Origin: an uncultured Candidatus Saccharibacteria bacterium
GTDB lineage: Bacteria > Patescibacteriota > Minisyncoccia > Phycocordibacterales > DATDWN01
NCBI GenBank assembly: GCA_964586695.1
Contig: CAZPGQ010000002.1
Span: forward strand, 6,337-70,336
Direction: 5' to 3'
DNA length: 64,000 nt
Under the pieces are notes generated by a model, which was not told the DNA's origin, ran no database searches, and worked only from the letters and a program-made list of their open reading frames with translations. This document shows, in pieces, positions 1 to 44,988 of the stretch (positions are counted from its first letter, which is position 1; every line of letters begins with the position of its first letter). Made by a program: the position numbers and the translations under genes.

Positions 1-3000
1 ACAGCTCCTCCGGTTGCACTCACTGCTCCAGTTGCATATGAATAATTTTCTATGATTCCACCACCAGCTCCCGCAGCAGTTCCGTTTGAACCAATAAGTC
101 CGCCAGCATATGCTGCACCGCCGGCTCCTGTAGCACCACCGGCACCACCCACTCCTCCGATTGAAGCTGTTCCACCTGCACCTCCAGCAACACCATTTGC
201 TCCGTTACCACTAGCACCACCGGTCGCAGTCACTGCTCGCGTAGAATAATTTGTAGTAATTTGTAAGTTATTACTTGCAGTGTTTGTTGTCTGTGCAACA
301 AGTCCACCAGCGTATGCTGCGCCTCCGGCTGAACTCGCACCACTCGCACCTGTTGCACCTCCAACTCCAGATCCTCCAGAAGCTGAACTACCAGCACTTC
401 CGCCAACACCTGATACACCTCCTGTTGCACTTACAGAACTAGTAATAGAATAATTATCTAGATAGTGAATAAATCCTGTTGTAACACTCGCAAGAGCAAC
501 AAGCCCACCTGCATCTGCTTCACCGCCAATTCCTCCCGCACCTCCTGCACCACCGGCGCCACCTATTGTTCCCCCTGTTGCACCTGCGCCTCCAGTACTA
601 CCAACAGCACCAACTCCACCTTGTGCACTGACAACTCCGGTTGAATATGAATTTGCAATACTACTGCCCGCAGGTGTTGTTGTAATTCTATGAATGCCAA
701 TAAGTCCACCTGCATATGCCGCACCGCCTGCTGGTGGAGTTCCAACTGCAGCTCCTCCTGCGCCCCCAGTAGCACCTGAAGCTGAAGATCCTCCTGCACC
801 AGAAGTTCCCTGAGTACCTGCATTTCCGCCAGTTGCACTAACACTGCCAGTTGCATAGTTAGAAAGATAGTCAATTGATCCAGTTGTTAAGTTGGATAAA
901 CCAATCAATCCACCTGCATCTGCTTCACCACCAACACCAGCGACTCCTCCCAATCCCCCGGCGGATCCTGTGTGAGTAGAACTTCCAGTTGAGCCATCAC
1001 CACCAGTACCACCTGTACCACCATTTCCACCCGTGCCACCCACAACACTGACATTACCAGTTGCATAAACATTTGAAATTCTCATTACTTGTGTAGTACC
1101 CGTGATACGACCAACCAACCCTCCTCCATATGTCGCGGCACCGGCACCACCATTTCCACCAACACCAGCAACAGCTGCCGTACCACTCGACTGACTTGCT
1201 CCTGATGTTCCACCAGCACCACCATTTCCACCATTACCACCAGTACCGCCTGTAACAGAAATATTTATATTTGAATATGAAGTATCTTGAATCGAACCAA
1301 GTGTTGATAGATAATCACCAACAAGTCCGCCGTATGCACGAATACCACCGGCACCTCCTGCGCCACCAACTGCACCAACACCACCGTTAAATGCACCAAC
1401 TCCTGTTCCTCCATTTCCGCCAGTACCACCATTACCTCCTGCCTGCTCACTTCCAGAAATACTTAAGTTAGTTGCGTATGAAGATGTAATAACACCAGAA
1501 CTAAATCCAATTAGACCACCCACAAACGCACCAGAAGATGCGCCTCCAACACCAAGTGTTGCAACAGCACCAGCTCCACCAGCACTTCCACCTGCTTTTC
1601 CTGAACCACCATTACCAGCATTACCACCATTTCCTGGAGTTCCACCTGTCACAGAGATATTACCTGTTCCCGCGCCGGCATCATAGCTGGCGTAAGAAGA
1701 AATAACATCTGCTGTTGCGTATCCCGCTAGACCTCCTGCATAAACAACTCCTGAAGCACCACCAGTACCAGGAACACTTCCGGCAACACCAGTACCTGAT
1801 GAACCTGAAATACCATTTGCACCGTTTGCCCCAGTACCGCCTGTTAATGTAAGTGTTGTTTTTGAATATGATCCATCTTGGATAACACCAGTGCTGTATC
1901 CAACAAGACCGCCAGCATAAACAGCACCACCTGCACCACCGTTTGATCCCGCTCCACCAATACCGTTAAGCGCTGTACCTGTACCAGTACCACCAGCACC
2001 ACCAAGCGCAGAAGCACCACCCGTACCACCAGTCGCTGTTACAGTTCCTGTTTTTGCATAACTATTTGTAATTGTTCCTAAAACATTTTGACCCGCAAGT
2101 CCCCCCGCTTGAACTGATGCTGCAAGAGTAATCGCACCAGCACCTCCGGCACCTGCTGCACCACCCACTCCACCAGCGTGGTTAGTTCCAGCAGAACCAT
2201 CTCCACCAACACCACCCACTCCTCCTGCACCTCCATTTCCACCAACAGCTGTAACACTAGTTGTTGCATATGAATCTGTAATACTTGCAGATAATGCAGT
2301 TACTCCATTTCTTCCAACAAGTCCTCCGACTGAAACTGCACCTCCGACACCACCCGCAGCACCAGCACCACCCGTCGCTGCAGTACCATTTGTAATTGTT
2401 CCAGACGCGCCCGCCGCACCACCAGCCCCACCCACGCCACCATTTCCACTTGTTGCAGTAACTGCTCCACCAATATGATAAGAATTTAATATATGTGAAG
2501 TATTATCACCAACAAGTCCACCAGTGAAGTTTACACCACCTGCACCACCCACTGTTCCTACAGTTCCTGCAGTTCCTGCTGAAGAAGATCCTCCCGCGCC
2601 TCCTGCGCCGCCGGCACCAGAATTTCCTCCGTTTCCAGATGTTCCTGTCACTGCACCGGTAGATGATGCATGAGAAATATTTCCTGTGGTTACAAGACCC
2701 ACAAGTCCACCTGTGTATGATGCACCGCCAAGACCTCCTGCGCCGCCGGCACCACCAGCACCACCCACTTGCGATGCACCACCTGTTGCACCTGCACCAC
2801 CCGCACCAGCATTACCTCCATTTCCTGCAACAACAGTAACATTACCTGTTGAATATGATGATTCAATCGAAACTCCAGTGTTTGTAAACCCAACAAGTCC
2901 ACCACCATATGCAAAACCTCCTGCTCCACCCGCACCACCTATGCCTCCTGCACCTCCAGCAACTGCACTTATAGCATTACTACCTACCCCACCGATACCA

Positions 3001-6000
3001 CCGGCACCACCTGTGTCTCCGGTAATTGTTACATTTCCTGTAGCATAAGAATCCTTTAATACAACTCCAGCTCCTGAAATAGAACCAATAAGACCTCCTG
3101 CATTTGATGCTGTTGCTTGAGTAATACCTCCAGCACCGCCGGCACCTCCAGAACTTCCAGCTGCACCGTTTACACCAGCAACTCCAGATCCTCCTGTGCC
3201 ACCTGTATCAGCATTGACAACAACATTATTGGTAGAAAATAGGTTATTGATATAAGCAACAGCAGAGTTACCCCCCAAAGCTCCTCCAACAAAAAGTGCA
3301 CCTGTTGCACCGCCGGCACCTCCAGCACCTCCTACTCCATTTCTTCCACTTCCTGAACCACCTGAACCACCAGCGCCACCTGAACCACCGTTTGCACCTC
3401 CACCACCAGAAGTAGCGGTAATCGTACCACCCTCACTACTTGAATTTGCAATATTTCCGTTCCCTTGACCAACAAGACCTCCTAAATATAAGTTTCCACT
3501 TGCTCCACCCGCTCCACCGGCACCACCAACTCCACCAGTGTGACCACCAGTTCCACTTGCACCGTTTCCTCCTGCGCCGCCGGCACCACCAGCACCACCA
3601 TCAACATTACTACTTGTAATATCTCCTACTACAATTGAATTATTTATAAGTCCTGGATTATCTCCTGCAAGTCCTCCTATATATGTTGCGCCTCCTGCGC
3701 CGCCGGCACCACCAGCACCACCTGTTGCTCCAGCACTTCCAGAAATATTACCGGATGCTCCAGCATTACCTCCGTTTCCACCAACACCTGGTGTTCCACC
3801 TGAGACAGTGATAGTAGTAATTGTATAATTGGTATTTCTAATAACACCAGTATTTGAACCGGCTATACCTCCACCATACCCCGCACCACCGGCACCACCA
3901 GCGCCTCCTACACCACCGGCACCACCTATTGCACCCGTAGAACTACCGCCCGCACCACCATTACCACCTGCACCACCATTACCACCTGCTCCACCTGCTG
4001 AATTAACCGTTCCTGTATTATTTGCAATATTAATTGTTCCTGCTATGACACCATTCCAACCCATAACACCCCCTGCATACGAGGCTCCTCCAGCACCTCC
4101 TGCACCTGCAGCTACTCCGGCAACACCAACAACTCCAGCGCCACTATTACCTCCATTTCCTGCATTTCCACCAGCACCACCAGCACCACCTGTTGCAGAA
4201 ACATTACCATTTGCATAAACATCTGATGCAACAGCACCAACACTAAATCCAATAAGTCCACCTGCTGCACCAACACCACCAACAGTTCCGACACCACCCG
4301 CAATACCAGTTCCTCCAGTAAATGCACCAGTTGATGTTCCTCCATTTGCGCCCGTAGCACCATTTGCACCTGCACCACCCGTTGCTGTTGCATTACCTGT
4401 TGCATAAGAACCTTGCACACTTCCATTTGTAGAATTAAATCCGATAAGCCCACCAGCATATCCAACACCTCCAAGGTTTGTTGCAGTAGCACCAGCTGCT
4501 CCACCAGCACCTCCAGCAGATGTTGCTCTATCACCACCAACACCACCACCACCATTCGCTCCACCGGCACCTCCAGTTGCTATCGCATTTCCAGTAGAAT
4601 ATGTCTCATGTATAGAACCTGTATTCATACCAACTGCTCCACCAGAATATCCAGCTGCTCCAACAACACCGGCACCTCCCACACCTCCAGCAGCACCCAC
4701 ACCTCCAGCTCCACCAGTCCCACCGATACCAGATGATCCTCCTGTTGAAGTAACAACAATATCAGCATATGAATCATTCACCACTCCAGCAGAATTAAAT
4801 GCAACAAGACCGCCTGCATATCCAATACCACCAGCACCGCTCGCACCACCTGTTCCACCCGCTGCACCAAGAGCTCCAGTACCACCGATACCACCAGCAC
4901 CACCTGTTGCACCTGTTCCACCATTACTACCGATTGAAGTAACAGAACCAGTTTCAAAATTTACCGAAGTTATACTTGCAGTATTTAAACCAGCAATACC
5001 ACCTGAATATGCAACTGCACCCGCACCTCCTGCTCCACCTGTAGCTCCTGCAGCACCAGTACTTGAAGCACCACCAGAAACATTACTGCCACCAAGACCC
5101 GCTGAACCACCATTCGCACCAGCAGATGCTGTTGCAGTTATTGTTCCACTTGCATAAGAATTAATAATTGTGTTTGTGTTGTTACCAACAACTCCAGATG
5201 CATACGCAATGGCACCAGCACCACCCGTGCCTCCAGTACCTCCTACTGCTCCTGCTCCAACAAAGGTTCCCACTGACGCACCTCCGGTACCACCGGAACC
5301 ACCAACCTGTGCAGTTCCTCCAAGTGAAGTAACATTACCTGTTGAATACGAAGTATCTTGAATCACACCAGCACTTTGTCCTGCTACACCTCCTGCAGTA
5401 GCAACACCACCAGCGCCTCCTGCTCCAGCAGCAGCACCAATACCACCCGCAAAGTTTGTTCCACCAACACCGCCAGTTCCTCCATTTCCAGCAGAACCAC
5501 CTGCACCACCAGTAACAAAAACATTTCCAGTATTGTAACTACTAGTAACTGTTCCTAGAATAATCTGTCCAACTACTCCTCCACCAAATGCTGCACCTCC
5601 TGCTCCACCAGCAGCTCCAGTCGATCCTGCTCCACCAGTGTTTGAAGTTCCCGCTCCACCATTCCCCCCGTTACCTCCGAGTCCACCAACACCACCAGTT
5701 GATGTAGCAATACCTGTTGAATATGAATTTTGAATTTCTCCGTTGTTAAGGTACCCAACAACACCACCTGCATAAGCGATACCACCTGCAGCTCCCGCTG
5801 AACCCGCAATACCAGCTACACCTGTTGTGAAAGTGTATCCATTACCACCATTTGCACCTGCTCCACCAGCACCAGATGTTCCTTCTACATTACTTGTTGA
5901 ATATGAGTCAGAAATTGTAGTTCCTGTATTGTGTCCAACAACTCCTCCCGCATAAATAATTCCTCCAACTGTTGCAGCACCAGCTGCACCTTGTGTTCCA

Positions 6001-9000
6001 CCTGTCCATGCACCACCAGCACCACCTGCGCCAGCAGATCCTCCTGCACCAGCTACACCAACTACACTACCGGTAGTATGGTAACTTTCTCTAACTGACA
6101 ACGTGCTGTTACCTGCAATTCCTCCAATATATAAAACTCCAGCTGCACCTCCAGTTCCGCCAGCAATACCAGCAAGTCCGTTCTGGGCCGCCACACCTGT
6201 GGCTCCTGCACCACCTGCACCACCAGTGCCAGACACAGCATTTGTAGAAGATGCAAATGCATTAACACCAAGATTACTTGCAACAACACCTCCAACATAT
6301 GCAGTACCACCAGCTCCACCTGCACCAGATGCACCCCCGGCACCAGATGTTCCCGCTGATCCCTTTGCACCACCGGATCCTCCAGTACCCCCAACTCCTC
6401 CAACTCCACCGACGACACTAACTAGTCCAGTCGTTGAATTTACATATCTAATCGCTCCATTATTTAATCCAACCAAGCCACCTGAATATGCTCCACCACC
6501 AGCACCACCAACAGACCCAGCTCCACCAGCACCACCTGTACCTGTAGTAGTAAGTGAAGCACTACCACCTGCTCCACCCGTAGTACCATTTTTACCCGCA
6601 GATCCTGTTGCCGTTACAACACCACTAGCGTAAACTTCTAAAGTTTCGCCTGAAATAATTCCTGATATACCATTTTGAGCAACGAGTCCTCCAGCGTATG
6701 CGATTGCTCCAGCACCACCAGCACCTCCAGTCGCAGTTGCACCAGATGCACCAGCAGCCACTGAACCCGCGGCAGAAGCACCACCCGCACTTCCCGCTGA
6801 ACCGTTACCTGGTGTACCACCAGTTGCCTGGACAACTCCTGTTGCATAACTTCCATTTTCAATAGTTCCTGAATTGTTTCCAACTAATCCACCTGCATAC
6901 GAAACACCACCAATTCCTCCAGCGGCACCGGCACCACCAATTCCTCCAATATTTGATCCTCCACCACCAGTTCCTGCATTACCCCCAGTACCAGATGTTC
7001 CTGCATTACCACCTGCACCACCTAGCGCAGTAACTTCTCCAGTAGTGAAAGAGGAACTCACTGTCCCGGCTTGTATCCATCCTACAAGTCCTCCAACATA
7101 AGAAACGCCTCCGGCTCCAGCTACTGCAGCTGCACCGCCTGCTCCACCAATTCCAGTTCCAACTCCAGTGACTGATCCATTTCCTCCATTTCCTGCATTT
7201 CCACTTGCACCTCCTGCTCCACCAGTACCAATAATTGTTGCCGTACTTGTTGCAGTTGCAATACTTCCTTGTTGTGAATATCCAACTACACCTCCCACAT
7301 ACACAGTACCGCCAATTGCAGCGGCATTACTAACAGCTGAACCACCTAAACCACCAGTGTTCGTCCCAGTTGTAGTGTTTCCACCGTTACCGCCAGCACC
7401 TCCTGCACCACCAGCACCTCCTGCACCAGTAACACTTCCCGCAACTCCAACATTTGTAATTGTTCCTGTGTTATATCCAACCAAACCACCGAGATATAAA
7501 ACACTACCCGCAGTACCAGCACCACCGTTAGTACCCGCAGTTGGTGATGCTCCATCCGATCCAGCTGAACCAGTACTACCTACAGTTCCCGCGGTACTTG
7601 TTGCACTAACAGATAAACCAGAAAGATATACATTTTGAATAAGGTTTGTTGAATATCCAAAAATTCCCACATAACTTGATGTCGTTGTGGCAATAAATAA
7701 ATTGCTTATGGTGAAATTATTTCCATCAAAAATTCCTGTAAATGTATTAACAGTTGAATTGCCCACTGGATCAAAACCGGCTCCAGAGTTCCAACCAGTT
7801 GTATTTGTGGCATCTATGTTGTTGTTTAATTTATAAGAACTTGATGTCGCAGTTTTCATTCCCTGTAGTCCATACACATCATAAATTATGAAAGGGTCTG
7901 TACTTATACCCAATCCGGTATATCGACGAAATGTACCTGCGCTTACAGAAAAACTTCCTGTCACGGTTAATGTATTTGTTTCAGGATTGGTCGCTGTAAA
8001 TGTCGCTGCAGATGTCTGAGAATAATTTCCAGACTGGCCACCAGAGTTTGTAATTGTAAGATCTTCACTTTGAACAATTGTCCCTGTATATCCACTGATA
8101 GTGATTGAGCCTGCAGTCGCAGAAGTATCTATGGTAATTACAGAAGATGCAGATCCAGAACTTGCATCAAAAAATACCGCAGTTGTTGCATCTGGAATAC
8201 CACCAAAACTTCCAGCCACACCGTTAGAAGATGCAGCCCATTTGTTTGAATCAGACCAATTTCCAGTACCTCCCACCCAGTAAGCATTTGGGTCAGTGAT
8301 GTAGTCTATCTCAATATTACCAATAATCTTTAAATCAAAAACTGCTGTCGGATTTATAAGCCCATTAAGAACTAGACTGTATCTTCCGTCACTACCGATT
8401 GTCGCAAAAGTTCCAACGTATGTACCATCAATTGTATAAACTTCTACCGTTACGGGAGAGCTGGAGCTAGCAGGTCGAGCAAACAATGTAATGTCACGTG
8501 TATTATCCAAAAGATGTTCAAATGTAACTCGCACATACTGCCCATCTAAAATACTCACATAATTTTGATCACGTGTTTTAACTAAATCATAAATATCCTC
8601 AATAACATTTTTAGCACTGTCCAATCTCATAGCATTTGAAATTAAAATAATTTCAAAAATCTGTGTAGACAAATGTGGAACTATCCATGCTACGTGATCT
8701 ATGTAACCGTTTCCATCTTCATCAGTTGCAACAAATTGCATTTCCTGAGCTCCGTTATTTTTCCACTGAATTTTAATTTTACTTTCATCACCCACTTTAA
8801 AAATTTCTGGTATAGCAGTTTGAACTGGAATGTTTATCATCGGTGTAATCAACTCCTGTTCCGGTGTTGCTGAAACTACTACTGTTTTTCCATTCTCTGA
8901 AATTTGCTCAACGATTGTTGGAATTTCTATTTGTGAAGATTGCGAACCTCCACCAGAAAGTGAATCATGGGTTTCAACTGAAGTTGTAGAATTCTGACTT

Positions 9001-9449
9001 ATAATATTTTCAGTAGAAGTTGAAACCTGTTCTTCGTTTAAAATTAAAACTGAAGTTGAGGTTGAAAATTGACCTTCATCTAAAACCGAATCAGAGTCAA
9101 GAATATTTTCATTATTTGAAATTTCATCCGTAGTTGTAGCAACAGAAATTTCTGTTGCTGTGGAATTTTGAATCTGCGTATCTATCTCAACTTGATTCTC
9201 GATTAGCGGATCTGCTGCCTGCTCAATATTTTCTTCAACAAGAATTGAAGGTTCAGTTATTTCTGGGATAGGCAATTCTGGAACTGCAGGCACTTCAGGA
9301 GCCACAACCTCTATTGGATCCACCTGGACCAATACTTCATTATCAGCATGGAGCTCCAATGGCAGCGCGACAAAGGCAAGTAGAAAAAATATCACTAAAG
9401 TATTTTTAGTGAAATATAATTTTAAATTTTTTATCCGTTCAAAAAACAT
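1..9449 (-). CDS. Giant secreted glycine-rich GLUG-repeat surface protein. 5'-partial (ORF runs off the left window edge), >3100 aa in window.
   Basis: Minus-strand ATG at 9449 encodes signal peptide MFFERIKNLKLYFTKNTLVIFFLLAFVALPLELHA. About 600 aa of non-repeat N-terminus follows, with GLUG-like stretches (GIFGYSTNLIQNVYLSGLSVSAT). Then about 7.6 kb of degenerate repeats of the form AGGLIG..ITNSYATGSVSA.GG separated by G/A/T/S linkers (e.g. ANGVAGGAGGTASIGGVGGAGGATGAGGAAYAGG read from revcomp of 100-200). No ORF ending at 9449 is listed in the track, so the frame stays open to the window edge. Confidence 0.8.
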   Translation of the reverse strand, partial: MFFERIKNLKLYFTKNTLVIFFLLAFVALPLELHADNEVLVQVDPIEVVAPEVPAVPELPIPEITEPSILVEENIEQAADPLIENQVEIDTQIQNSTATEISVATTTDEISNNENILDSDSVLDEGQFSTSTSVLILNEEQVSTSTENIISQNSTTSVETHDSLSGGGSQSSQIEIPTIVEQISENGKTVVVSATPEQELITPMINIPVQTAIPEIFKVGDESKIKIQWKNNGAQEMQFVATDEDGNGYIDHVAWIVPHLSTQIFEIILISNAMRLDSAKNVIEDIYDLVKTRDQNYVSILDGQYVRVTFEHLLDNTRDITLFARPASSSSPVTVEVYTIDGTYVGTFATIGSDGRYSLVLNGLINPTAVFDLKIIGNIEIDYITDPNAYWVGGTGNWSDSNKWAASSNGVAGSFGGIPDATTAVFFDASSGSASSVITIDTSATAGSITISGYTGTIVQSEDLTITNSGGQSGNYSQTSAATFTATNPETNTLTVTGSFSVSAGTFRRYTGLGISTDPFIIYDVYGLQGMKTATSSSYKLNNNIDATNTTGWNSGAGFDPVGNSTVNTFTGIFDGNNFTISNLFIATTTSSYVGIFGYSTNLIQNVYLSGLSVSATSTAGTVGSTGSAGSDGASPTAGTNGGAGTAGSVLYLGGLVGYNTGTITNVGVAGSVTGAGGAGGAGGAGGNGGNTTTGTNTGGLGGSAVSNAAAIGGTVYVGGVVGYSQQGSIATATSTATIIGTGGAGGASGNAGNGGNGSVTGVGTGIGGAGGAAAVAGAGGVSYVGGLVGWIQAGTVSSSFTTGEVTALGGAGGNAGTSGTGGNAGTGGGGSNIGGIGGAGAAGGIGGVSYAGGLVGNNSGTIENGSYATGVVQATGGTPGNGSAGSAGGASAAGSVAAGASGATATGGAGGAGAIAYAGGLVAQNGISGIISGETLEVYASGVVTATGSAGKNGTTGGAGGSASLTTTGTGGAGGAGSVGGAGGGAYSGGLVGLNNGAIRYVNSTTGLVSVVGGVGGVGGTGGSGGAKGSAGTSGAGGASGAGGAGGTAYVGGVVASNLGVNAFASSTNAVSGTGGAGGAGATGVAAQNGLAGIAGGTGGAAGVLYIGGIAGNSTLSVRESYHTTGSVVGVAGAGGSAGAGGAGGAWTGGTQGAAGAATVGGIIYAGGVVGHNTGTTISDSYSTSNVEGTSGAGGAGANGGNGYTFTTGVAGIAGSAGAAGGIAYAGGVVGYLNNGEIQNSYSTGIATSTGGVGGLGGNGGNGGAGTSNTGGAGSTGAAGGAGGAAFGGGVVGQIILGTVTSSYNTGNVFVTGGAGGSAGNGGTGGVGGTNFAGGIGAAAGAGGAGGVATAGGVAGQSAGVIQDTSYSTGNVTSLGGTAQVGGSGGTGGASVGTFVGAGAVGGTGGTGGAGAIAYASGVVGNNTNTIINSYASGTITATASAGANGGSAGLGGSNVSGGASSTGAAGATGGAGGAGAVAYSGGIAGLNTASITSVNFETGSVTSIGSNGGTGATGGAGGIGGTGALGAAGGTGGASGAGGIGYAGGLVAFNSAGVVNDSYADIVVTSTGGSSGIGGTGGAGGVGAAGGVGGAGVVGAAGYSGGAVGMNTGSIHETYSTGNAIATGGAGGANGGGGVGGDRATSAGGAGGAAGATATNLGGVGYAGGLIGFNSTNGSVQGSYATGNATATGGAGANGATGANGGTSTGAFTGGTGIAGGVGTVGGVGAAGGLIGFSVGAVASDVYANGNVSATGGAGGAGGNAGNGGNSGAGVVGVAGVAAGAGGAGGASYAGGVMGWNGVIAGTINIANNTGTVNSAGGAGGNGGAGGNGGAGGSSTGAIGGAGGVGGAGGAGGAGYGGGIAGSNTGVIRNTNYTITTITVSGGTPGVGGNGGNAGASGNISGSAGATGGAGGAGGAGGATYIGGLAGDNPGLINNSIVVGDITSSNVDGGAGGAGGAGGNGASGTGGHTGGVGGAGGAGGASGNLYLGGLVGQGNGNIANSSSEGGTITATSGGGGANGGSGGAGGSGGSGSGRNGVGGAGGAGGATGALFVGGALGGNSAVAYINNLFSTNNVVVNADTGGTGGSGVAGVNGAAGSSGGAGGAGGITQATASNAGGLIGSISGAGVVLKDSYATGNVTITGDTGGAGGIGGVGSNAISAVAGGAGGIGGAGGAGGFAYGGGLVGFTNTGVSIESSYSTGNVTVVAGNGGNAGAGGAGATGGASQVGGAGGAGGAGGLGGASYTGGLVGLVTTGNISHASSTGAVTGTSGNGGNSGAGGAGGAGGSSSAGTAGTVGTVGGAGGVNFTGGLVGDNTSHILNSYHIGGAVTATSGNGGVGGAGGAAGASGTITNGTAATGGAGAAGGVGGAVSVGGLVGRNGVTALSASITDSYATTSVTAVGGNGGAGGVGGVGGDGSAGTNHAGGVGGAAGAGGAGAITLAASVQAGGLAGQNVLGTITNSYAKTGTVTATGGTGGASALGGAGGTGTGTALNGIGGAGSNGGAGGAVYAGGLVGYSTGVIQDGSYSKTTLTLTGGTGANGANGISGSSGTGVAGSVPGTGGASGVVYAGGLAGYATADVISSYASYDAGAGTGNISVTGGTPGNGGNAGNGGSGKAGGSAGGAGAVATLGVGGASSGAFVGGLIGFSSGVITSSYATNLSISGSEQAGGNGGTGGNGGTGVGAFNGGVGAVGGAGGAGGIRAYGGLVGDYLSTLGSIQDTSYSNINISVTGGTGGNGGNGGAGGTSGASQSSGTAAVAGVGGNGGAGAATYGGGLVGRITGTTQVMRISNVYATGNVSVVGGTGGNGGTGGTGGDGSTGSSTHTGSAGGLGGVAGVGGEADAGGLIGLSNLTTGSIDYLSNYATGSVSATGGNAGTQGTSGAGGSSASGATGGAGGAAVGTPPAGGAAYAGGLIGIHRITTTPAGSSIANSYSTGVVSAQGGVGAVGSTGGAGATGGTIGGAGGAGGAGGIGGEADAGGLVALASVTTGFIHYLDNYSITSSVSATGGVSGVGGSAGSSASGGSGVGGATGASGASSAGGAAYAGGLVAQTTNTASNNLQITTNYSTRAVTATGGASGNGANGVAGGAGGTASIGGVGGAGGATGAGGAAYAGGLIGSNGTAAGAGGGIIENYSYATGAVSATGGA

Positions 9450-9903
9450 AGATTATTATTAATAATTTTAACAAACAGATTTTTTTATGTATATGAAAAA
9501 TGATTATATTTTTAGTCATATTCTTCTACTAAACTTTTTAATTTTATTAGTATTTTTTCACAGAAAAAATAGCTAGCTTTTTGCGGGAAAACAATTTAAA
9601 AATCAGCATTAACTATCCAATGAAATATTAGATTTGAAAATAATACTTGCATGAAACATCTACCCAGACGAAGCCATCACCTTTAAATTTATTATCGATA
9701 GAAATAGAAAATGTTTTTATGTATTTATATATACTATATTATTGGGCCGACACATTAATAAACCTTGATAATGATATATACGAAATTGACTATTTTATCT
9801 ATATTTATAGCTCCACTAGTTTAAAATTTATATTTTACTTGTAGATTTAATTTTTTGGTAAAAGTATGCCTAATTTAAATCTGTGTAACATTTTTGATTT
9901 TTG

Positions 9904-9974
9904 AGCCAAGAATGAGAATCGAACTCATGTTCCTGCTTTACGAAAGCAGTGTTCTACCACTGAACTACCCTGGC
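9904..9974 (-). tRNA. tRNA-Thr (anticodon CGU)
   Basis: Cloverleaf on minus strand: acceptor gccaggg/tcttggc (2 GU pairs), anticodon stem ctgct/agcag, loop ttCGTaa, T arm atgag-ttcgatt-ctcat. No encoded CCA. Confidence 0.75.
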
Positions 9975-10056
9975 TAATGAATACAATATAGTTCCAAAAT
10001 ATTGTATGTACCAAATTAAGTTATCCACAATCAAACTTAAAATTTGTTTAATTTTG

Positions 10057-10128
10057 AGCCGCTGGCGGGAATCGGACCCGCGCTCTCCGTCTTACCAAGA
10101 CGGTGCTTTACCACTAAGCCACAACGGC
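10057..10128 (-). tRNA. tRNA-Thr (anticodon GGU)
   Basis: Minus strand: acceptor gccgttg/cagcggc, anticodon stem ccgtc/gacgg, loop ttGGTaa, T arm gcggg-ttcgatt-cccgc. Confidence 0.75.
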
Positions 10129-19842: not shown

Positions 19843-20754
19843 CTACCAAGTAGCCGTTACGGCAGAATTTGAACTAACTTGCCACGACCATGTTGGTCTC
19901 TGAGGATCATAAAATGGATCAGAAACAGAATAGCCACTTTCTGAACTACAATGAGAAATTAATTTATAGTTAACACCATCTGATTTATATAAATAAGCAT
20001 TATGCCAAGTACTAGGAAGACATATGGCCACCTTCGTTATCTCGACCCCCCTTGGGTCGTGTGGATATGTTGGCATAAAATTCGGAGCCAAGCCAGGTAT
20101 CCAATCCGGGGTAGAATACCACAGATCACCAACTTCAGAACTCTTCCACACCATACTAGTGTTTGGGTACGTACCATTTGCACTTTTATAAGCTTCTATT
20201 GCAGACTGAAGTTTTAACAATGTAGCTTTTCTTATTGAATCATTATCCTGCTTGTTTTCATATGTAATTGAAACCCCCCTTTCGTATCTTCTTGGTGATG
20301 TTGTATCACAAGTGTTATACCCCCTAGAGTCTATTGTTGTATAACCATTAGCTTTCTTTGTTACAGTTACAATGGCACAACCTTTTGTATAGGTTAGATA
20401 AAAAGTACTTGTTGCATTTGCAATTCCTCCACCACCAATAACACTACTCTGTGTTGGATTAGTAGGGACAGTTTGTAAACCAGTCTTTATAGTCTGGAAA
20501 TTACAAAAAATAGTTCCTGGTGTTGCTGTAGCAAAAGGGCTTAAATCTGCACTGCTTAAGTCCCAATGTTTTGCACACTCCAGACCACTGTCCGCCGCAA
20601 AAAACGCATATTGTGACTCTTCATTAGAGGTTGCAAGTTTTAATTGCTTTACAGCAACATCACTTAGCATAAAACCTATAACCAAAAGCATGGATGTAAC
20701 TACAACTGCAACTACCAATGTAAAACCTTTGTTTTTTTTCATTTTACTGACCAT
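19843..20754 (-). CDS. Pilin-like protein with non-canonical prepilin leader (KGFTLVVAVVV, no Glu5). Probable minor pilin / pilus-tip component.
   Basis: N-terminal KKNKGFTLVV hydrophobic helix. Cys-rich 303 aa. First gene of the pseudopilin run. Confidence 0.5.
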   Translation of the reverse strand: MVSKMKKNKGFTLVVAVVVTSMLLVIGFMLSDVAVKQLKLATSNEESQYAFFAADSGLECAKHWDLSSADLSPFATATPGTIFCNFQTIKTGLQTVPTNPTQSSVIGGGGIANATSTFYLTYTKGCAIVTVTKKANGYTTIDSRGYNTCDTTSPRRYERGVSITYENKQDNDSIRKATLLKLQSAIEAYKSANGTYPNTSMVWKSSEVGDLWYSTPDWIPGLAPNFMPTYPHDPRGVEITKVAICLPSTWHNAYLYKSDGVNYKLISHCSSESGYSVSDPFYDPQRPTWSWQVSSNSAVTATW

Positions 20755-21328
20755 TAAATAATGATTCTTTTATCTGAAATGATTTTGCTAAATTACCAGT
20801 ATTCCAACTCATTGTAACAATTATTTCAACTTCTGTTGAAGATATTGGTGAAATTTGTACTTCTCTTTTAAAATTAGATGACGTCCAACTTGCTCCAGAT
20901 GTATAACTAAATGCTCCAGTTGTAGAATTCTGTTTTAGATTTTGACACGTTCCAAAACCTCCGGCACAATTTGCAACAGTTTTTGTATAAACGTCTACAG
21001 TACAAGTCTTTTGTGATACACCAGTTCCTCCATACCAACATGCGTCAGATGTGACCTCTGATAATCCATGTAGCCAATTCACCATTGAACATGAGCCTGT
21101 TGAGATACAATATGTATCATTGAGTGCATTTTCATCTTTTAAATTTTTAATAAACTCTACAGCTTCTTGAGCCAGATAAAATGCGGTTACCTGATCTTTT
21201 ACAATAAGAGAACTTTTTAAGCTACCCTGCACAGCAGTAAATGTTGCCAATATAGAAACAGTCAAAATACTTATAGCCACCAGAGACTCAACTATCGTAA
21301 AACCTTTGTTGTTTTTTAAAATTTTCAT
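20744..21328 (-). CDS. Type IV pseudopilin / minor pilin
   Basis: Prepilin cleavage/methylation motif NKGFTIVESLVAISIL. Confidence 0.7.
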   Translation of the reverse strand: MKILKNNKGFTIVESLVAISILTVSILATFTAVQGSLKSSLIVKDQVTAFYLAQEAVEFIKNLKDENALNDTYCISTGSCSMVNWLHGLSEVTSDACWYGGTGVSQKTCTVDVYTKTVANCAGGFGTCQNLKQNSTTGAFSYTSGASWTSSNFKREVQISPISSTEVEIIVTMSWNTGNLAKSFQIKESLFNGQ

Positions 21329-21333
21329 AGATT

Positions 21334-21930
21334 TTATTGTGTATCAAAAAGTCTTTGTGAAACCGCAGTTTGTATTGCAAAAGTAGATTTAATAGTTGGC
21401 TTTGAACCCACATAACCTTTAATAATTATGACTATCATAGGTTGTGCAAAATTAAGACTTGAATATTTTGCTGAACCATAAACATAAAACTTTAAACTCT
21501 CAATGGTAACGTCTGAACTAGTCAAATAAGATGGTGTAGCAGAGCCTCCAACGTATCTTGTAATACGATTACTCTCAAGCTTATAGATATAATTTACACC
21601 AGATGATGAATACAAAGATATTGAGGATGCTCCATTTACCATATCAGGACAGTCACTTGGCAGAGTCAAAACTACTGGATTAGTGGCTGGATCAGAATCA
21701 CAATGATAAAGATAACCAAAACGCATTACTCTTGTCATTGATTCCAAAGTAATATTTAGATTGTCCATAATGGATCGCATACTTTGTGATTTCCGATTTC
21801 CTTCTATAACACTGTATATAGACCCCATACTTATAGTCATAATAACTATAAATATAGTTGAAGAAACCATGATTTCTATCAGAGTAAATCCTCTTTTTTT
21901 ATTTATTTTTTTTATCTTATTGAATATCAT
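21334..21930 (-). CDS. Type IV pseudopilin / minor pilin
   Basis: KRGFTLIEIMVSSTIFIV prepilin N-terminus. Confidence 0.7.
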   Translation of the reverse strand: MIFNKIKKINKKRGFTLIEIMVSSTIFIVIMTISMGSIYSVIEGNRKSQSMRSIMDNLNITLESMTRVMRFGYLYHCDSDPATNPVVLTLPSDCPDMVNGASSISLYSSSGVNYIYKLESNRITRYVGGSATPSYLTSSDVTIESLKFYVYGSAKYSSLNFAQPMIVIIIKGYVGSKPTIKSTFAIQTAVSQRLFDTQ

Positions 21931-21942
21931 TATAAATATTTA

Positions 21943-22533
21943 CTATTGGAAATTTACCTGACCTGTTTTTTCTACCGTTATTGTAACAGTCTTACTTTTT
22001 GGAGACCTTAAAATAATTTTACCTGTATTTTTAGTAACTATATAATTATTACTACTATCAACAAAGTATATTATCGAATCTGGATCAGGACGAAGAAAAC
22101 CTATGTACATCCTTGTAGCGTTTGGAGGTGGACAAATCAAATCCCCACAAATACCATCAATTACAACATTACTTTTATATGCCCCCTTTTCAATACACTC
22201 TGTAGTACTAGTACCACAACCTGTTCCAACATCATAACGACCGTTAACATTTTTATCCACAAACAAATAGTAATCTGGACTTGAAGTGTCAAAATAAACG
22301 GCATAAGAATAATTAAAATTACCCCCAGAAACAGATGCCTCCCTAACATTTATTGCATAAGCTTGTGCTTGTTTTATTAATGACGCTATATCCTGAGCTG
22401 ATGCTGTCAAAGCCAATCTATCATTAAAATCAGAATAATTAAACAGCACAAAACTAGATATTATGGTTACTATTGATATAGAAACCAAAAGCTCAATTAA
22501 AGTGAAACCTCTTAAAGATTTTATGGTTTTCAT
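21943..22533 (-). CDS. Type IV pseudopilin / minor pilin
   Basis: LRGFTLIELLVSISIV prepilin N-terminus. Confidence 0.7.
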   Translation of the reverse strand: MKTIKSLRGFTLIELLVSISIVTIISSFVLFNYSDFNDRLALTASAQDIASLIKQAQAYAINVREASVSGGNFNYSYAVYFDTSSPDYYLFVDKNVNGRYDVGTGCGTSTTECIEKGAYKSNVVIDGICGDLICPPPNATRMYIGFLRPDPDSIIYFVDSSNNYIVTKNTGKIILRSPKSKTVTITVEKTGQVNFQ

Positions 22534-22535
22534 AA

Positions 22536-23372
22536 TTAACTCAATAGTTCTTTTATACCCAACACATCAATTCCACTAAAAAATACAATAACCATAGCCA
22601 GTATAAGAAATGGAGCAAACGGAATTTCGGAACTAACACTAACTCCATTATTTTTAGATAATTTGCTCCTTAATAGAATAAATACGCTGTATATTGCACC
22701 TATCCAAAAGGCCAATACTACAGCATTTAAACCAGAAGAAAGCCCCATAAATGCACCGATACCAAAAACAAGCTTAGCATCACCAAATCCCATCCAAAGA
22801 CCAGATGACACGAGCCACAACAAGGCAAATGGTGTAAATAAGATAAGAGGCGCAGACAAATCTAGATAATCCAAGAAAGAAAGATCAAAGTCTTTACAAT
22901 AAGCAAAGATAAAGAAACGAATCAGTGAAAGGAAAATAAAAGTGTATACCAGCTTATCTGGAATTATTTTATGCTTAATATCATATATACACATAACCAA
23001 CAAAAGAGAAAAGACCACTATATAGTAAATAGAAAATAAAACAGAATAAACAAGAGCATTTTCCAAACCAACATACATTGGCCAAAGCATATACTGTCTT
23101 AGACCAATCAATACAAATATTAAGCCAGCAGAAGCTTCGACAATAGGATACTGAATTGAAATCTCACTATGACAAGTTCGACATTTACCCCTTTGAAACA
23201 AAAAACTAAAGAGTGGTATTAGCTCGTACCATTCTAATGTTTTGTTACAATCGAAACATTTTGATCTTCCTGAAGCGAAAGAAAGCCCGCTGTTATATCG
23301 CAAACCTATTACATTAACAAAACTGCCGACAATAGTACCGAAAACAAAAAGTAGTATGAACAATAGCTCCAT
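22536..23372 (-). CDS. pilD: Prepilin peptidase (A24 family)
   Basis: N-terminal Zn-binding CxxC...CxxC (CFDCNKT...CRTCHSE), polytopic membrane, DIKHKIIPD catalytic region. Confidence 0.8.
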
Positions 23373-23415
23373 ATAACTATTATATTATTAAAATCAAACA
23401 TTTGCACCAAAGATA

Positions 23416-23835
23416 CTAACAAGCGGTGATGCGACCTGCGCCAGCTGGTCTAGGTATCTGCTTAGAACTACCCACACTATCAACACACCAAACCTGCGCG
23501 CCACCGACAGAAGATTTGAGTGGGACCCAAGCGGCCCAAGCAACAATACTAGGCCAGCAAACCCCAACACTACCACCACTAGCATTTTTTGCTGCTTGAA
23601 ACAACTCATTCATTCTAGACTCTGCACAAATTGACCTAAAACCAATATCATTTACGTCATACCAATTTTCTCCTTCCCCTCTCATTGCGGATAAATTACT
23701 TTTTATTGCAGAATCTGCTGCATTATTTCTACCTGTCGTAAAAAAATTCAGCACAACTGATGACAATATACCGATAATCGCAATAACCACCAACAATTCG
23801 ATAAGTGTAAAACCTCTAATAGTTTTATATGTCAT
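23416..23835 (-). CDS. Type IV pilin (PilA-like), paralog 1
   Basis: IRGFTLIELLVVIAIIGILSSVVL N-terminus. C-terminal Cys pair. Confidence 0.8.
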   Translation of the reverse strand: MTYKTIRGFTLIELLVVIAIIGILSSVVLNFFTTGRNNAADSAIKSNLSAMRGEGENWYDVNDIGFRSICAESRMNELFQAAKNASGGSVGVCWPSIVAWAAWVPLKSSVGGAQVWCVDSVGSSKQIPRPAGAGRITAC

Positions 23836-23914
23836 TTTATAATTTTAACAAGAATTGGCTCAATTATTATTAATAATAAACTATTTTTTTTAAAAAATAT
23901 AGTTTATTGGCAAC

Positions 23915-23939
23915 AAAAAACCGCAAATAGCGGTTTTTT
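23915..23939. terminator. Rho-independent terminator hairpin downstream of pilin paralog 2
   Basis: aaaaaaccgcaaatagcggtttttt (palindromic, T-runs both sides). Confidence 0.6.
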
Positions 23940-23963
23940 GTACATTATAAAACGTAAAATAAA

Positions 23964-24443
23964 CTAAGTGTTTGCAATTACACAATCTGCATCTGTATTT
24001 GCGTCAAAAGTAGCAGTAGTAATTTGCATTGAGTTACCTGAATTATCCACACACCAAGCATTAGCGGGATCAGTCTTCAGAGGAGATGCTATTACATACC
24101 AAGTAGAATCCCCGGCGCAAATCACTTCAACATTACCATTCTTTACTATAGCATCATCAATCTGTTTCTGGACAGTTGGGTCGTCGGAAACTGAACTTGG
24201 CTGTCCAGCTGCCCCACAAGTGGCATTATAGTAAGCGCCAACAGGACCATAGTTACCACTAGTATCATAAAATACCTCAGCAGCCGCTCTAATACCTGCG
24301 ATGTCAGCCTTTATAGCAGCGTCAGAACCCTTTGCTCTTGCTGTATTGAGGGATGCCAAAACAACTGATGACAATATACCGATAATCGCAATAACCACCA
24401 ACAATTCGATAAGTGTAAAACCTCTGTTAAGTCTATTTTTCAT
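23964..24443 (-). CDS. Type IV pilin (PilA-like), paralog 2
   Basis: MKNRLNRGFTLIELLVVIAIIGILSSVVLASLNTAR... N-terminus. First about 60 aa near-identical to paralog 3. Confidence 0.8.
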   Translation of the reverse strand: MKNRLNRGFTLIELLVVIAIIGILSSVVLASLNTARAKGSDAAIKADIAGIRAAAEVFYDTSGNYGPVGAYYNATCGAAGQPSSVSDDPTVQKQIDDAIVKNGNVEVICAGDSTWYVIASPLKTDPANAWCVDNSGNSMQITTATFDANTDADCVIANT

Positions 24444-24516
24444 TATTTTAAAATGATTATTATAATTAGTTACTTAATAATAAATCATTTATTTTATAAA
24501 GTATAGTTTATTATTA

Positions 24517-24542
24517 ACAAAAAACCGCAATTTGCGGTTTTT
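24517..24542. terminator. Rho-independent terminator hairpin downstream of pilin paralog 3
   Basis: aaaaaaccgcaatttgcggtttttt, near-identical to the hairpin at 23915. Confidence 0.6.
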
Positions 24543-24568
24543 TGCACATCATGAAATGTGGAAATATA

Positions 24569-25051
24569 TTAACTATTTGCTAATACACAGTCAGAATCTC
24601 CAGTACCTGTGAAAGTAGCCATTGTAATCTGCATTGAATTACCTGAACTATCCACACACCAACCATTAGCTGTACTTGTCTTTAGAGGAACAGCAACAAC
24701 ATAGAGTGAAGGAGAACCAACACATATCGCATCTGTACCACCATTCTTTGCAACAGCATCATCAATTTGTTTCTGTACTATTGGATCTGCTGAAACTGAA
24801 CCAGCAGTAGGTGAAACGCCACAAGATCCATCAAAAAATAGAGCGGCTGAACCGTAGTTACCATTAGCTGTATCATAAAAAACCTCTGCAGCGGCTCTGA
24901 TACCTGCAACGTCCGCTTTGATAGCAGCATCTGATCCCTTACTTCTAGCTGTGTTTAGTGAAGCCAAAACAACTGATGACAATATACCGATAATCGCAAT
25001 AACCACCAACAATTCGATAAGTGTAAAACCTCTGTTAAGTCTATTTTTCAT
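24569..25051 (-). CDS. Type IV pilin (PilA-like), paralog 3
   Basis: Same conserved N-terminus, divergent C-terminal half. Confidence 0.8.
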   Translation of the reverse strand: MKNRLNRGFTLIELLVVIAIIGILSSVVLASLNTARSKGSDAAIKADVAGIRAAAEVFYDTANGNYGSAALFFDGSCGVSPTAGSVSADPIVQKQIDDAVAKNGGTDAICVGSPSLYVVAVPLKTSTANGWCVDSSGNSMQITMATFTGTGDSDCVLANS

Positions 25052-25211
25052 AATTAAATTTTATAATTTTTATTACTAATTTTTTATAATATAACCTCCA
25101 TAATTATTCGACCATCGCTCTCTTTTCAGAGATTACCGTTTTATATAAACGAATAGATATATTATACGGCTGTATTAGAACTAATAAAAGTACCCCTGTG
25201 GATAAGCCACT

Positions 25212-26423: not shown

Positions 26424-26427
26424 AAAT

Positions 26428-27495: not shown

Positions 27496-27882
27496 TTATT
27501 TTTGTTTATTTTTATAGACAGAAAGCACCTGATCAACAACTTCCGATGGAATAGTAGTTGCTTTTATTATATAACCATCAACACCAAGCACCTTTGCTTT
27601 ATCAAAATCATCTGCCTGATTTGTTAACATAATTATTGTTGATTCTGGCAATAATTTTTCCTCTCTAATTTTTTTAAGAAGCTCTAAACCATCCATACCA
27701 GGCATTATTATATCCATAAGTATAATGTTATAGACATTTGAGCGAATTTTTTCTAGAGCAGACAGACTATTTGATGACGTATCTATCTCAAGACCTGACT
27801 TCTTAAACTTCATGGAATACATATCGAGAAGAAACTTGTCATCATCAATAAGTAGTATTTTTATTTGTGGGTTATCTGACAT
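27496..27882 (-). CDS. CheY-like response regulator receiver (stand-alone REC, PilH-like)
   Basis: KILLIDDDKFLL...ILMDIIMPGMDGLELLKKIR. 128 aa, no output domain. Confidence 0.75.
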   Translation of the reverse strand: MSDNPQIKILLIDDDKFLLDMYSMKFKKSGLEIDTSSNSLSALEKIRSNVYNIILMDIIMPGMDGLELLKKIREEKLLPESTIIMLTNQADDFDKAKVLGVDGYIIKATTIPSEVVDQVLSVYKNKQK

Positions 27883-27890
27883 TTTTTTGA

Positions 27891-38891: not shown

Positions 38892-38978
38892 GGAGAGATG
38901 GATGAGTGGCTTAAATCAACGGTTTACTAAACCGTCATCCCTTAATTGGGATCGCGAGTTCGAATCTCGCTCTCTCCG
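38892..38978 (+). tRNA. Class II (Ser-type) tRNA whose anticodon reads ACU as drawn (unusual A34). Needs tRNAscan-SE verification.
   Basis: Acceptor ggagaga/tctctcc, D stem gat/atc, anticodon stem acggt/accgt, loop ttACTaa, variable stem atccc/gggat, T arm gcgag-ttcgaat-ctcgc. Confidence 0.6.
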
Positions 38979-39125
38979 CAAGTAAAAATTACTTGTAATT
39001 TTTATCGAAGGAGAGGAGGACTAGCTTTTTGTATTCAAAAAGCGTTAGTCGATTCGAAAAGGTTCTTTAGATATTTTTAGAGCTTGCGAATAAAAATATC
39101 AAAAACCTGCACTGAAACTGTAAGT

Positions 39126-44834: not shown

Positions 44835-44908
44835 AAACTCCGTGCGCCTGCCAGGATTCGAACCTGGGACCCCAGAGGTATAAGCTCTGTGCTCTAACCA
44901 ACTGAGCT
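44835..44908 (-). tRNA. tRNA-Ile (anticodon UAU) by loop reading
   Basis: Acceptor gcgcctg/caggcgc, D arm gctc-agttggtta-gagc, anticodon stem cagag/ctctg, loop ctTATac, T arm ccagg-ttcgaat-cctgg. Confidence 0.65.
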
Positions 44909-44988
44909 ACAGGCGCACGCAATTTTCTTCCATCCCATATAGCTGGTTCGATCGGATGTAATGAAAGCAAGCTTTCGCCACATCCTCA

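Follow-up and report, generated by a model that had tools for sequence, protein, structure and literature searches.

A giant GLUG-type repeat protein with glycine-rich spacers in Patescibacteria, a candidate surface fiber

Patescibacteria, whose genomes measure about 1 Mb, are believed to live attached to other cells; few of the molecules that make this contact have been described beyond a handful of cultured Saccharibacteria. The window analyzed here—64,000 nucleotides of contig CAZPGQ010000002.1, from an uncultured Candidatus Saccharibacteria bacterium—also encodes a type IV pilus cluster and a second large surface protein. Its left end, positions 1..9449, raises the question whether a stretch in which the ORF listing contains nothing but shadow ORFs of 103–176 aa encodes a protein and, if so, of what kind.

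An earlier note on this DNA had proposed a secreted protein of more than 3,100 aa, still open at the window edge and invisible among listed ORFs that represent its shadow frames. Translation of window:3–9449 bears this out: the minus-strand, Gly-rich frame from 9449 down to 3 comprises 3,149 codons without a single stop, as compared with 65–165 stops in each of the remaining five frames. The gene is missing from the listing because ORFs running off an end are left out. In-frame stops lie immediately 5′ of the ATG at 9449 (−), and the ORF continues past the window at position 1, such that the partial CDS (1..9449, minus strand) has its C-terminal part outside. The coding strand is, as had also been noted, G-rich (35% G in the repeat part), and GC content in the repeat part reaches 0.48–0.51 vs. 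~0.34 for the remainder of the window; synonymous codon preferences are nonetheless A/T-ending, as in neighboring genes (GC3 0.149 vs. 0.25), so the rise in GC stems simply from Gly and Ala codons. In comparison with one ortholog (L007), 48–57% of conserved codons are synonymously changed, at an amino acid identity of 71–81% over the array. The giant frame is thus a genuine coding sequence kept by purifying selection. Two further assemblies carry the identical sequence (100%), making three independent assemblies that are base-identical over their shared span; promoter-like sites upstream occur at chance level (6 vs. 5.1 ± 2.7 expected). Our best reading is that the left end of the window holds the first two-thirds of one gene that is native to a Patescibacteria (CPR) bacterium.

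Most of this partial product is a tandem array. Residues 650–3149 (3..7502, −) form 39 units of ~65 aa, identified with a purpose-built HMM; the figure of about 100 repeats given in the earlier note was too high, the 39 cores in the window recurring with a period of 64.8 ± 3.7 aa (range 56–74). Each unit joins a ~28-aa GLUG-type core (consensus xYxGGLVGxNxGxIxNSYxTGxVxAxGG) to a ~37-aa spacer. The array is 35% Gly overall, very low in charge, and free of Cys; in the spacers, 47% of residues are Gly, arranged in (GGX)n phase (lag-3 autocorrelation 0.46). GGX tracts occur as 62 runs of 2–6 triplets, with X mostly Ala or Asn, always broken by the beta cores. A (GGA)5 tract at the spacer end is in register with the next core, and the Gly pattern is phase-locked at positions −18 to −5 before every core. 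Gly-rich segments between the cores had been recognized previously, but as "GGAGGTGG linkers", a description that does not suit ~37-aa phase-locked (GGX)n segments of near-invariant length across species. The Gly-rich half of the unit is likely a fixed-length structural element rather than a floppy linker. AlphaFold2 models the cores as stacked short beta-strands (pLDDT 87–94, pTM 0.72) and the spacer middles at low confidence (pLDDT 31–58). A Foldseek search with this repeat model gave no significant structural match (best E 0.04, TM-score <0.2), the top nonsignificant hits being antifreeze proteins. TRF reported only 9- and 18-nt micro-repeats and missed the 195-nt unit because its copies are too diverged.

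Scans of the whole protein against Pfam and NCBIfam returned zero matches, probably owing to HMMER composition filters. Isolated units, as compared with the whole protein, did exceed the PF07581 cut-off of 20.5 bits (24.7, 22.8, and 21.4 bits), and 15 of the 39 cores matched this family at E ≤ 0.01, with no other family matched; the GLUG assignment of the earlier note is upheld at this level. The array is preceded by an N-terminal cap (residues 534–649; 7503..7850, −; YKLNNNIDATNTTGWNSGAGFDPVG..FTGIFDGNNFTISNL..YVGIFGY) that shares 46% identity (E 2e-15) with the module opening each canonical GLUG array of the protein P0186, and that also matches P0039, a YDG/GLUG protein. The usual cap patterns are ...FTGxFDGxGxTISNL... 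for the N-cap and ...SFWDxxTSG...GKTTxQMK...W.F...YPxL for the C-cap; the latter lies beyond the window here and is seen in orthologs only, where it matches canonical C-caps at E 9e-7. Neither the cap joined to the first unit nor a canonical GLUG array, used as queries against PDB sequences, yielded anything usable. By motif, profile, and cap similarity, the giant protein is a GLUG-type repeat protein.

The region before the array constitutes a ~650-aa head behind a signal-peptide-like start. The N-terminus, MFFERIKNLKLYFTKNTLVIFFLLAFVALPLELHA|DNE, resembles a Sec signal peptide as judged by eye (residues 1–35; 9345..9449, −): the n-region is basic, the hydrophobic core spans 14 residues, and the putative cleavage site reads LHA|DNE; three homologs (P0002, P0003, P0010) have comparable x-F-A|[DE][DE] sites. 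A signal peptide beginning at 9449, as had been claimed, is consistent with this inspection. Residues 36–183 (8901..9344, −) form an acidic, Ser/Thr-rich region of low-complexity composition that varies strongly among orthologs, with 18–31% identity to the five examined, vs. 65–98% for the repeat array. A conserved all-beta domain follows (residues 184–388; 8286..8900, −), supported by AlphaFold2, Foldseek, and invariant residues; it is predicted with pLDDT 80–95 and contains a calcium-loop-like motif, DEDGNGYIDHVAW. Foldseek matches of the model in the PDB include Vip3 domains (E 2e-5), allantoicase, CBM6 (1uxx; TM-score normalized to target 0.56), CBM15, and SGBP-B. The model suggests a beta-sandwich resembling carbohydrate-binding jelly-roll modules, and the domain is common to other Patescibacteria proteins and a few from DPANN Archaea. 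Next comes a Thr/Ser-rich beta-strand region opening with YWVGGTGNWSD... and kept in orthologs (residues 389–533; 7851..8285, −), modeled at low confidence (pLDDT 35–61) and without a match in a Pfam scan. The motifs quoted in the earlier note—NAYWVGGTGNWSDSNKW, TFTGIFDGNNFTISNL, and AGGLIG...NSYATGSVSA—all occur in frame. The beta-strand motifs of the head are therefore present, but describing them as autotransporter-like is probably misleading, as orthologs end in FN3 and dockerin domains rather than a beta-barrel translocator.

Homologous sequences were found at 68 loci, nearly all in Patescibacteria; about 30 of these contain 20–44 detected cores each, with median periods of 63–67 aa. The array is collinear with 12 orthologs, unit for unit: at 67–92% identity, 10 of the 12 show no more than 7 inserted residues and no more than 6 deleted ones along ~2,500 aa. 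As these core counts and alignments show, the gene recurs, matched unit by unit, in about 30 Patescibacteria genomes, and this match across many lineages implies strong selection on exact physical length or shape. The array had been called a hotspot for slippage and recombination. The comparisons made here gave no hint that repeat number is unstable: no exact DNA repeat exceeds 32 nt, units are 60–75% identical at the DNA level, the three assemblies agree, and ortholog indels are almost nil. A tract shared with L006 at 98% identity may stem from genuine exchange between lineages or from chimeric co-assembly. A tblastn comparison with ortholog loci found no upstream synteny, and our literature searches found no paper connecting GLUG with Patescibacteria.

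The window ends before the gene does, and the C-terminal layout is accordingly drawn from orthologs. A search with the last 500 aa for the missing part in the same organism gave one 76%-identical fragment, with no overlap found; a contig from a sister metagenome (L081), considered as a continuation, proved no closer to the present lineage than to others. C-terminal ORFs of orthologs encode FN3 repeats and poly-Gly, and a search of proteins with an ortholog C-cap plus FN3 query returned short FN3 fragments only, no full-length proteins. In nine orthologs the C-terminus is a dockerin-type tail after FN3 and poly-Gly, without a beta-barrel; Dockerin_1 (PF00404) scored 30–51 bits in all seven metagenomic C-termini tested (cut-off 22.9) and 39.4 bits in the ortholog L072. 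Beyond the window, the gene would thus continue with ~10 more units and a canonical GLUG C-cap; 10–22 FN3 domains would come next, then a small domain containing Cys and a poly-Gly hinge, with a type-I dockerin at the C-terminus. A conserved pair of signal-peptide genes with C-terminal membrane anchors lies 3′ of the orthologs. The larger product matched Pfam Cohesin in both cases tested, at 24.7 and 30.5 bits, narrowly above the cut-off of 24.1; the smaller, in the one case tested, gave no Cohesin match. A profile of the downstream domain reached a scaffoldin cohesin in the PDB at a nonsignificant E = 0.77 and matched nothing in NCBIfam, and the window itself contains no cohesin-type ORF. By extension, the two genes next to the present one would each encode a protein with a signal peptide, a putative cohesin-type domain, and a C-terminal membrane anchor. 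Because the C-terminus and downstream genes lie outside the window, the dockerin–cohesin arrangement is extrapolated from orthologs at 56–92% identity.

The giant GLUG-type protein with Gly-rich segments is real and apparently secreted. On balance we favor its interpretation as a Sec-exported surface fiber of roughly 5–6,000 aa, docked through dockerin–cohesin binding and bearing a carbohydrate-binding-like head. The protein would be exported by Sec and its signal cleaved; its dockerin would then dock onto the cohesin carriers in the membrane. A stalk, at a rough estimate tens of nanometers long or more, would be built from the FN3 chain and the GLUG beta-solenoid, and the N-terminal head, facing outward, may recognize glycans of a host or partner cell. 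For an organism of the episymbiotic type, the sequence is most plausibly read as that of a surface protein or adhesin, in keeping with the pilus cluster and the second large surface protein of the window. The earlier proposal of an S-layer or adhesin candidate is retained in its adhesin half; for the part within the window, where composition filters may have blinded the whole-protein scan, no S-layer family is among the Pfam matches.

A structural envelope component—an S-layer-like coat, a sheath, or a spacer setting cell-to-cell or cell-to-wall distance—in place of a specific adhesin is the least unlikely of the alternatives, though we consider it improbable. Near-invariant length and unit-for-unit conservation would fit a molecular ruler or scaffold; the very low charge and lack of Cys in the repeat region and an outlay of ~1.5–2% of a ~1-Mb genome (a rough estimate from the 977-kb chromosome CP066698.1) also speak for an envelope component. 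However, Pfam and NCBIfam scans of the whole protein (perhaps blinded by composition filters) and of separate head pieces recovered no S-layer family, and the head–stalk–anchor layout, fast-evolving N-terminal tip, and CBM-like head are typical of adhesins and receptor-binding fibers. If the signal peptide were not cleaved, the topology would be inverted, with the N-terminal hydrophobic segment as an anchor and the dockerin as the distal, partner-binding end. The signal was judged by eye and has Leu at −3 of the putative cleavage site, which leaves this arrangement a small chance; against it, homologs retain the x-F-A|[DE][DE] cleavage-type motif, and the adjacent putative cohesin partners bear membrane anchors of their own, suiting anchoring on the same cell.

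We give slightly less credence still to an enzyme-bearing beta-helix, in which the repeats form the catalytic or substrate-binding groove of an IgA-protease-like peptidase or of an enzyme acting on glycans as a lyase or hydrolase. The Pfam description does place GLUG in IgA1 proteases, and the IgA1 protease of Streptococcus pneumoniae is among the weak Foldseek matches, along with pectate lyases and depolymerases of phage tailspikes; these matches are, however, all nonsignificant (E 0.2–10), scans of the part within the window detected no catalytic domain, and the ortholog regions scanned gave FN3 and dockerin only. That the locus is not a gene at all, its open frame arising from G-rich simple-sequence DNA or an assembly artifact, could be argued from the low-complexity composition, the empty whole-protein scans, and the fact that short-read assemblies all break inside it. 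This explanation is effectively refuted by the length of the stop-free frame in an AT-rich genome, the agreement of three assemblies, residue-level conservation alongside saturated synonymous change, collinearity over about 30 genomes, and recognizable caps and domains.

The surface fiber favored here admits a bolder version, which we advance only as a speculation with the odds well against it: that the 65-aa unit is a previously undescribed composite repeat, in which a GLUG beta-solenoid rung alternates with register-locked (GGA)5/(GGX)n polyglycine-II-type helices or with a Gly-only rung along the solenoid, and that the ~5–6,000-aa dockerin–cohesin-anchored fiber is the main host-tethering organelle of a large Patescibacteria group. 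Such a unit would explain the near-invariant spacer lengths between species, and the family may also uncover a new Gly-rich structural element. The family would claim the genome share estimated above and occurs in many lineages. Hardly any members appear in the two protein collections searched, since the gene disrupts both assembly and gene calling. Three parts lend themselves to experiments on episymbiont attachment: the head domain, a rod fragment of several units, and the dockerin–cohesin pair.

Among known systems, canonical GLUG proteins (P0171, P0186, and P0039, the last a Glaciimonas "YDG domain-containing protein") share the core motif YxGGLxGxNxGxIxNSYATGxVxG, the N-cap module, and, via orthologs, the C-cap, and likewise carry tandem arrays in very large extracellular proteins. 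Their arrays, however, are several and short, mostly with 27–34-aa median periods (86 library matches) and 13–25% Gly; here a single run of about 49 units, including inferred ones, has a ~37-aa (GGX)n segment after every core, so that the period is twice as long, at 65 aa, and Gly reaches 35%. Gly-Gly-X triplet tracts give a probable resemblance to PE_PGRS proteins and are shared with polyglycine-II/polyproline-II bundle proteins (antifreeze proteins of snow fleas and springtails; PDB 2pne, 7jjv). In contrast with mycobacterial PE_PGRS proteins, Pfam scans find no PE domain in the giant protein; in contrast with the long uninterrupted GGX tracts of polyglycine-II proteins, its Gly tracts are short, reach at most 6 triplets, and alternate strictly with beta-strand cores. 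Autotransporter and other type V passengers carry a C-terminal beta-barrel translocator; the barrel-free ortholog C-termini argue against membership.

RTX adhesins such as MpIBP presumably offer a parallel in layout, with the ligand-binding region kept from the anchoring end by a very long repeat "extender". Giant genes of Omnitrophota likewise have a very long repeat region, and metagenome assemblies split them as well; the paper on them discusses dockerin-type domains and mentions neither GLUG nor the present gene family (bioRxiv 10.1101/2023.11.21.568195). Both differ from the protein described here in repeat type, secretion and anchoring, and phylum. The Dockerin_1 end and adjacent putative cohesin-domain genes of the orthologs are shared with the dockerin–cohesin systems of cellulosomes (Clostridium and Ruminococcus scaffoldins); in Patescibacteria, however, the cargo would be a giant fiber rather than an enzyme, and the cohesin carriers would be anchored by a C-terminal transmembrane helix.

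Translation of the minus strand gives 3,149 stop-free codons from an ATG at window position 9449 to position 3, whereas the remaining five frames carry 65–165 stops over this interval. In-frame stops lie immediately 5′ of the ATG, and the frame is unclosed where the window ends. Translation in the Gly frame thus bears out the earlier note's claim of a giant minus-strand ORF open at the window edge. As that note also held, the ORFs listed for positions 1–9449 (103–176 aa only) are shadow frames of this gene; only short ORFs appear there because the listing leaves out those running off an end. GC content is 0.48–0.51 in the gene versus about 0.34 elsewhere in the window, with strongly negative GC skew on the plus strand. 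This rise reflects Gly (GGN) and Ala (GCN) content only: codon analysis gives a GC3 of 0.149 in the repeats versus 0.25 in neighboring genes, and synonymous preferences are A/T-ending, as in those neighbors. These data therefore indicate a native gene. An origin as an imported GC-rich island is ruled out by the GC3 and by the neighbor-like synonymous preferences.

The repeat array spans residues 650–3149 (minus strand; HMM and motif anchoring). An HMM built from the protein's own sequence detects 39 positive-scoring GLUG-type cores, and anchoring on GG[LVI][VI][GA] gives a period of 64.8±3.7 aa (range 56–74); the count of about 100 repeats made from sequence alone was too high. Each unit joins a core of ~28 aa (xYxGGLVGxNxGxIxNSYxTGxVxAxGG) to a spacer of ~37 aa (47% Gly, 20% Ala) in which non-Gly residues fall at every third position (autocorrelation 0.46 at lag 3, 0.37 at lag 6, and 0.27 at lag 9), X in GGX following the order A > T > V > N > S. 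Positions −18 to −5 before each core read GG-A-GG-A-GG-A-GG-A-GG in fixed register, with Gly at 61–82% of G positions versus 5–16% of X positions. The whole protein had no match in Pfam or NCBIfam; isolated units exceed the PF07581 (Glug) cut-off of 20.5 bits (24.7, 22.8, and 21.4 bits), and 15 of the 39 cores match PF07581 at E ≤ 0.01 and hit no other family, so that the GLUG assignment stands. In an AlphaFold2 model of residues 540–1000 (pLDDT 69.9, pTM 0.72), each core forms three or four short strands (pLDDT 87–94), spacer ends score about 73–79, and spacer middles score 31–58 without regular secondary structure. Foldseek found no significant PDB match for this model; weak matches included polyproline/polyglycine-II antifreeze bundles, S. 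pneumoniae IgA1 protease, and right-handed beta-helices. The register-locked Gly tracts may form a new structural element beside a beta-solenoid.

The locus is base-identical in NCBI metagenome contig JACCDT011070101.1 and in a Logan assembly, where the gene is broken at 2,622 and 1,919 aa, respectively; every assembly of the locus breaks within the gene, and no repeat-number variation was seen between these two and the window. In a multiple alignment, 10 of 12 orthologues carry 0–7 inserted and 0–6 deleted residues over 2,489 aligned array residues, at 67–92% array identity, and the two most distant carry about 19–20 insertions and as many deletions. This near-absence of indels implies that units are individually orthologous and spacer lengths almost invariant. 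Compared with orthologous locus L007, synonymous changes affect 48–57% of the codons whose amino acid is conserved, at 71–81% array amino acid identity; codon comparison indicates that cores and spacers alike are under purifying selection. The Gly-rich segments are thus not the loose linkers previously proposed. The idea of a slippage hotspot is likewise contradicted, as units share only 60–75% DNA identity, the longest exact DNA repeat is 32 nt, and orthologue arrays are nearly indel-free. As an exception to the otherwise uniform divergence, residues 1501–1900 (window 3750–4949) share 98% DNA identity with orthologous locus L006 over a tract of ~1.2 kb that may extend to 2.4 kb; here synonymous changes affect only 5% of conserved codons, versus 32–57% in most other segments and 14% in the adjacent block (residues 1901–2300). 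The tract stems either from a recent recombination between lineages or from chimeric co-assembly of the MAG.

By inspection, residues 1–35 form a Sec signal peptide-like start (basic n-region, 14 hydrophobic residues, LHA|DNE), followed by an acidic, Ser/Thr-rich, low-complexity region (residues 36–183). These N-terminal 183 residues are hypervariable, with 18–31% identity to orthologues over residues 41–183. Residues 184–388 (window 8286–8900, minus strand) form a conserved all-beta domain (AlphaFold2 pLDDT 80–95), for which Foldseek matches were Vip3 domains (E 2e-5), allantoicase, CBM6 1uxx (TM-score 0.56, normalized to target), CBM15, and SGBP-B; as modeled, it resembles carbohydrate-binding-type jelly-rolls. 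This beta-sandwich (motif DxDxDGxIDxxEW...VRVTFE...DITxYA) also stands at the N-terminus of large Staskawiczbacteria proteins that are otherwise unrelated, and it occurs in DPANN archaea (Woesearchaeota, Nanoarchaeota), carriers including loci L068 and L071 and proteins P0022 and P0030; from this distribution it is a module common to both domains among ultra-small, presumably symbiotic organisms. A conserved but poorly modeled "YWVGGTGNWSD" region (residues 389–533; conservation and AlphaFold2) precedes the N-cap (residues 534–649), which has 46% identity (E 2e-15) to the module opening each canonical array in P0186, a large GLUG-array surface protein.

Head alignment across one genome per species matched 68 loci, almost all in Patescibacteria MAGs (labeled Saccharibacteria, Paceibacterota, Parcubacteria, Wolfe-, Falkow-, Kaiser-, Doudna-, and Staskawiczbacteria), along with a few DPANN archaea having the N-domain alone in common. 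The full architecture recurs in about 30 loci, with 20–44 detected cores, median periods of 63–67 aa, and Gly of 0.34–0.37; most of these frames have not yet closed at about 4,000 aa, where the retrieved flank ends. An exhaustive phmmer search with six units against 1.84 billion representatives matched only 86 proteins, among which most full arrays are canonical GLUG (period 27–34 aa, Gly 13–25%) and the Gly-rich form (Gly ≥0.26) occurs only as short fragments. Within this survey the interleaved GLUG/Gly form was confined to this Patescibacteria family and therefore seems to be a variant in its own right.

Orthologue arrays run on for some 10 further units, to position ~3,805 in window-equivalent numbering, and close with a canonical C-cap (SSYWDxxTSG…GKTTxQMKQQATFxGWDF…YPxFNYQ) matching P0186 (E 9e-7). 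Metagenome loci found via this C-cap continue in long ORFs with 10–22 FN3 domains, a conserved Cys-containing domain, 8–20 mostly uninterrupted glycines, and then a C-terminal domain that scores above the Pfam Dockerin_1 cut-off of 22.9 bits in all 7 cases tested (30–51 bits), as does the C-terminus of the L072 orthologue (39.4 bits). From the further units, C-cap, FN3 domains, and dockerin of orthologues, the full product would come to roughly 5–6,000 aa. In the long contig of L072 (JAXLZS010000001.1, 8000–13785), frameshifts inside near-identical FN3 repeats divide the FN3 part among 6–7 gene calls; errors in sequencing or assembly seem a likelier cause than biology, and the product annotated as 4,054 aa is probably about 5,980 aa. 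Wherever sequence is available, orthologues are directly followed by one or both of two genes (about 200–300 and about 330–630 aa), each encoding a protein that has a signal peptide, shares its N-terminal domain with the other, and ends in a transmembrane helix. The larger proteins of orthologous loci L076 and L090 match Pfam Cohesin (24.7 and 30.5 bits; cut-off 24.1); a downstream-protein profile had no significant PDB match (E 0.77 to scaffoldin cohesin), nor did the domain in NCBIfam, and no cohesin- or dockerin-like ORF lies within the window.

Elsewhere in the window, a type IV pilus cluster (19843–29609, minus strand; also present in locus L001) encodes a PilX_N protein, three N_methyl pilins, a prepilin peptidase (A24), and a PilB-type T2SSE ATPase. 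Domain matches identify another large protein of surface type (1,858 aa; 33071–38647, minus strand): behind an N-terminal hydrophobic segment it carries a G8 domain (55.8 bits) and a CEMIP-type beta-helix (52.8 bits), then about a dozen Ig/FN3-like repeats of ~100 aa that show a conserved C..C pattern, and a Gly/Thr-rich linker. Their proximity to the giant gene fits a surface-interaction lifestyle. Immediately upstream of the giant gene are two tRNA-Thr genes (CGU, GGU; 9903–10128, minus strand); that the giant protein is 10–12% Thr is probably a coincidence. An unusual tRNA-Ser with anticodon loop UU-ACU-AA, and so anticodon ACU with A34 (38892–38979, plus strand), adjoins a normal tRNA-Ser(GCU) in divergent orientation; outside tRNA-Arg, A34 is rarely found in bacterial tRNAs. 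An unusual tRNA-Ile(UAU) (44842–44916, minus strand) and a tmRNA gene with tag peptide AKNTFAKAIPSPFMANGFALAFA (47986–48381, plus strand) are also present.

One rival reading makes the giant gene an artefact; the data show a giant GLUG-type repeat protein that is real and conserved, with a signal peptide-like start and, in structural models, a CBM-like head. Orthologous loci suggest that it also has an FN3 extension, a dockerin, and adjacent membrane-anchored, putative cohesin proteins. We propose that the protein would be exported by Sec, with subsequent cleavage of the signal, that its C-terminus would dock onto cohesin proteins of its own cell, and that the head would be displayed outward at the tip of a long stalk. 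A tip that evolves fast on a conserved stalk is what one expects of a receptor-binding fibre. Rival readings would reverse this topology, or would make the protein a structural coat or ruler, or an enzymatic beta-helix.

A literature search found no paper linking GLUG with Patescibacteria, and the giant-gene preprint concerns Omnitrophota only. Unlike autotransporters, the orthologues have no barrel; unlike PE_PGRS proteins, the giant protein lacks a PE domain; Pfam and NCBIfam scans of its window part detected no S-layer module. It departs from the usual 30-aa geometry of canonical GLUG arrays, though it has their motif and canonical caps in common (the C-cap as seen in orthologues), and as proposed here it would work in the manner of giant modular adhesins.
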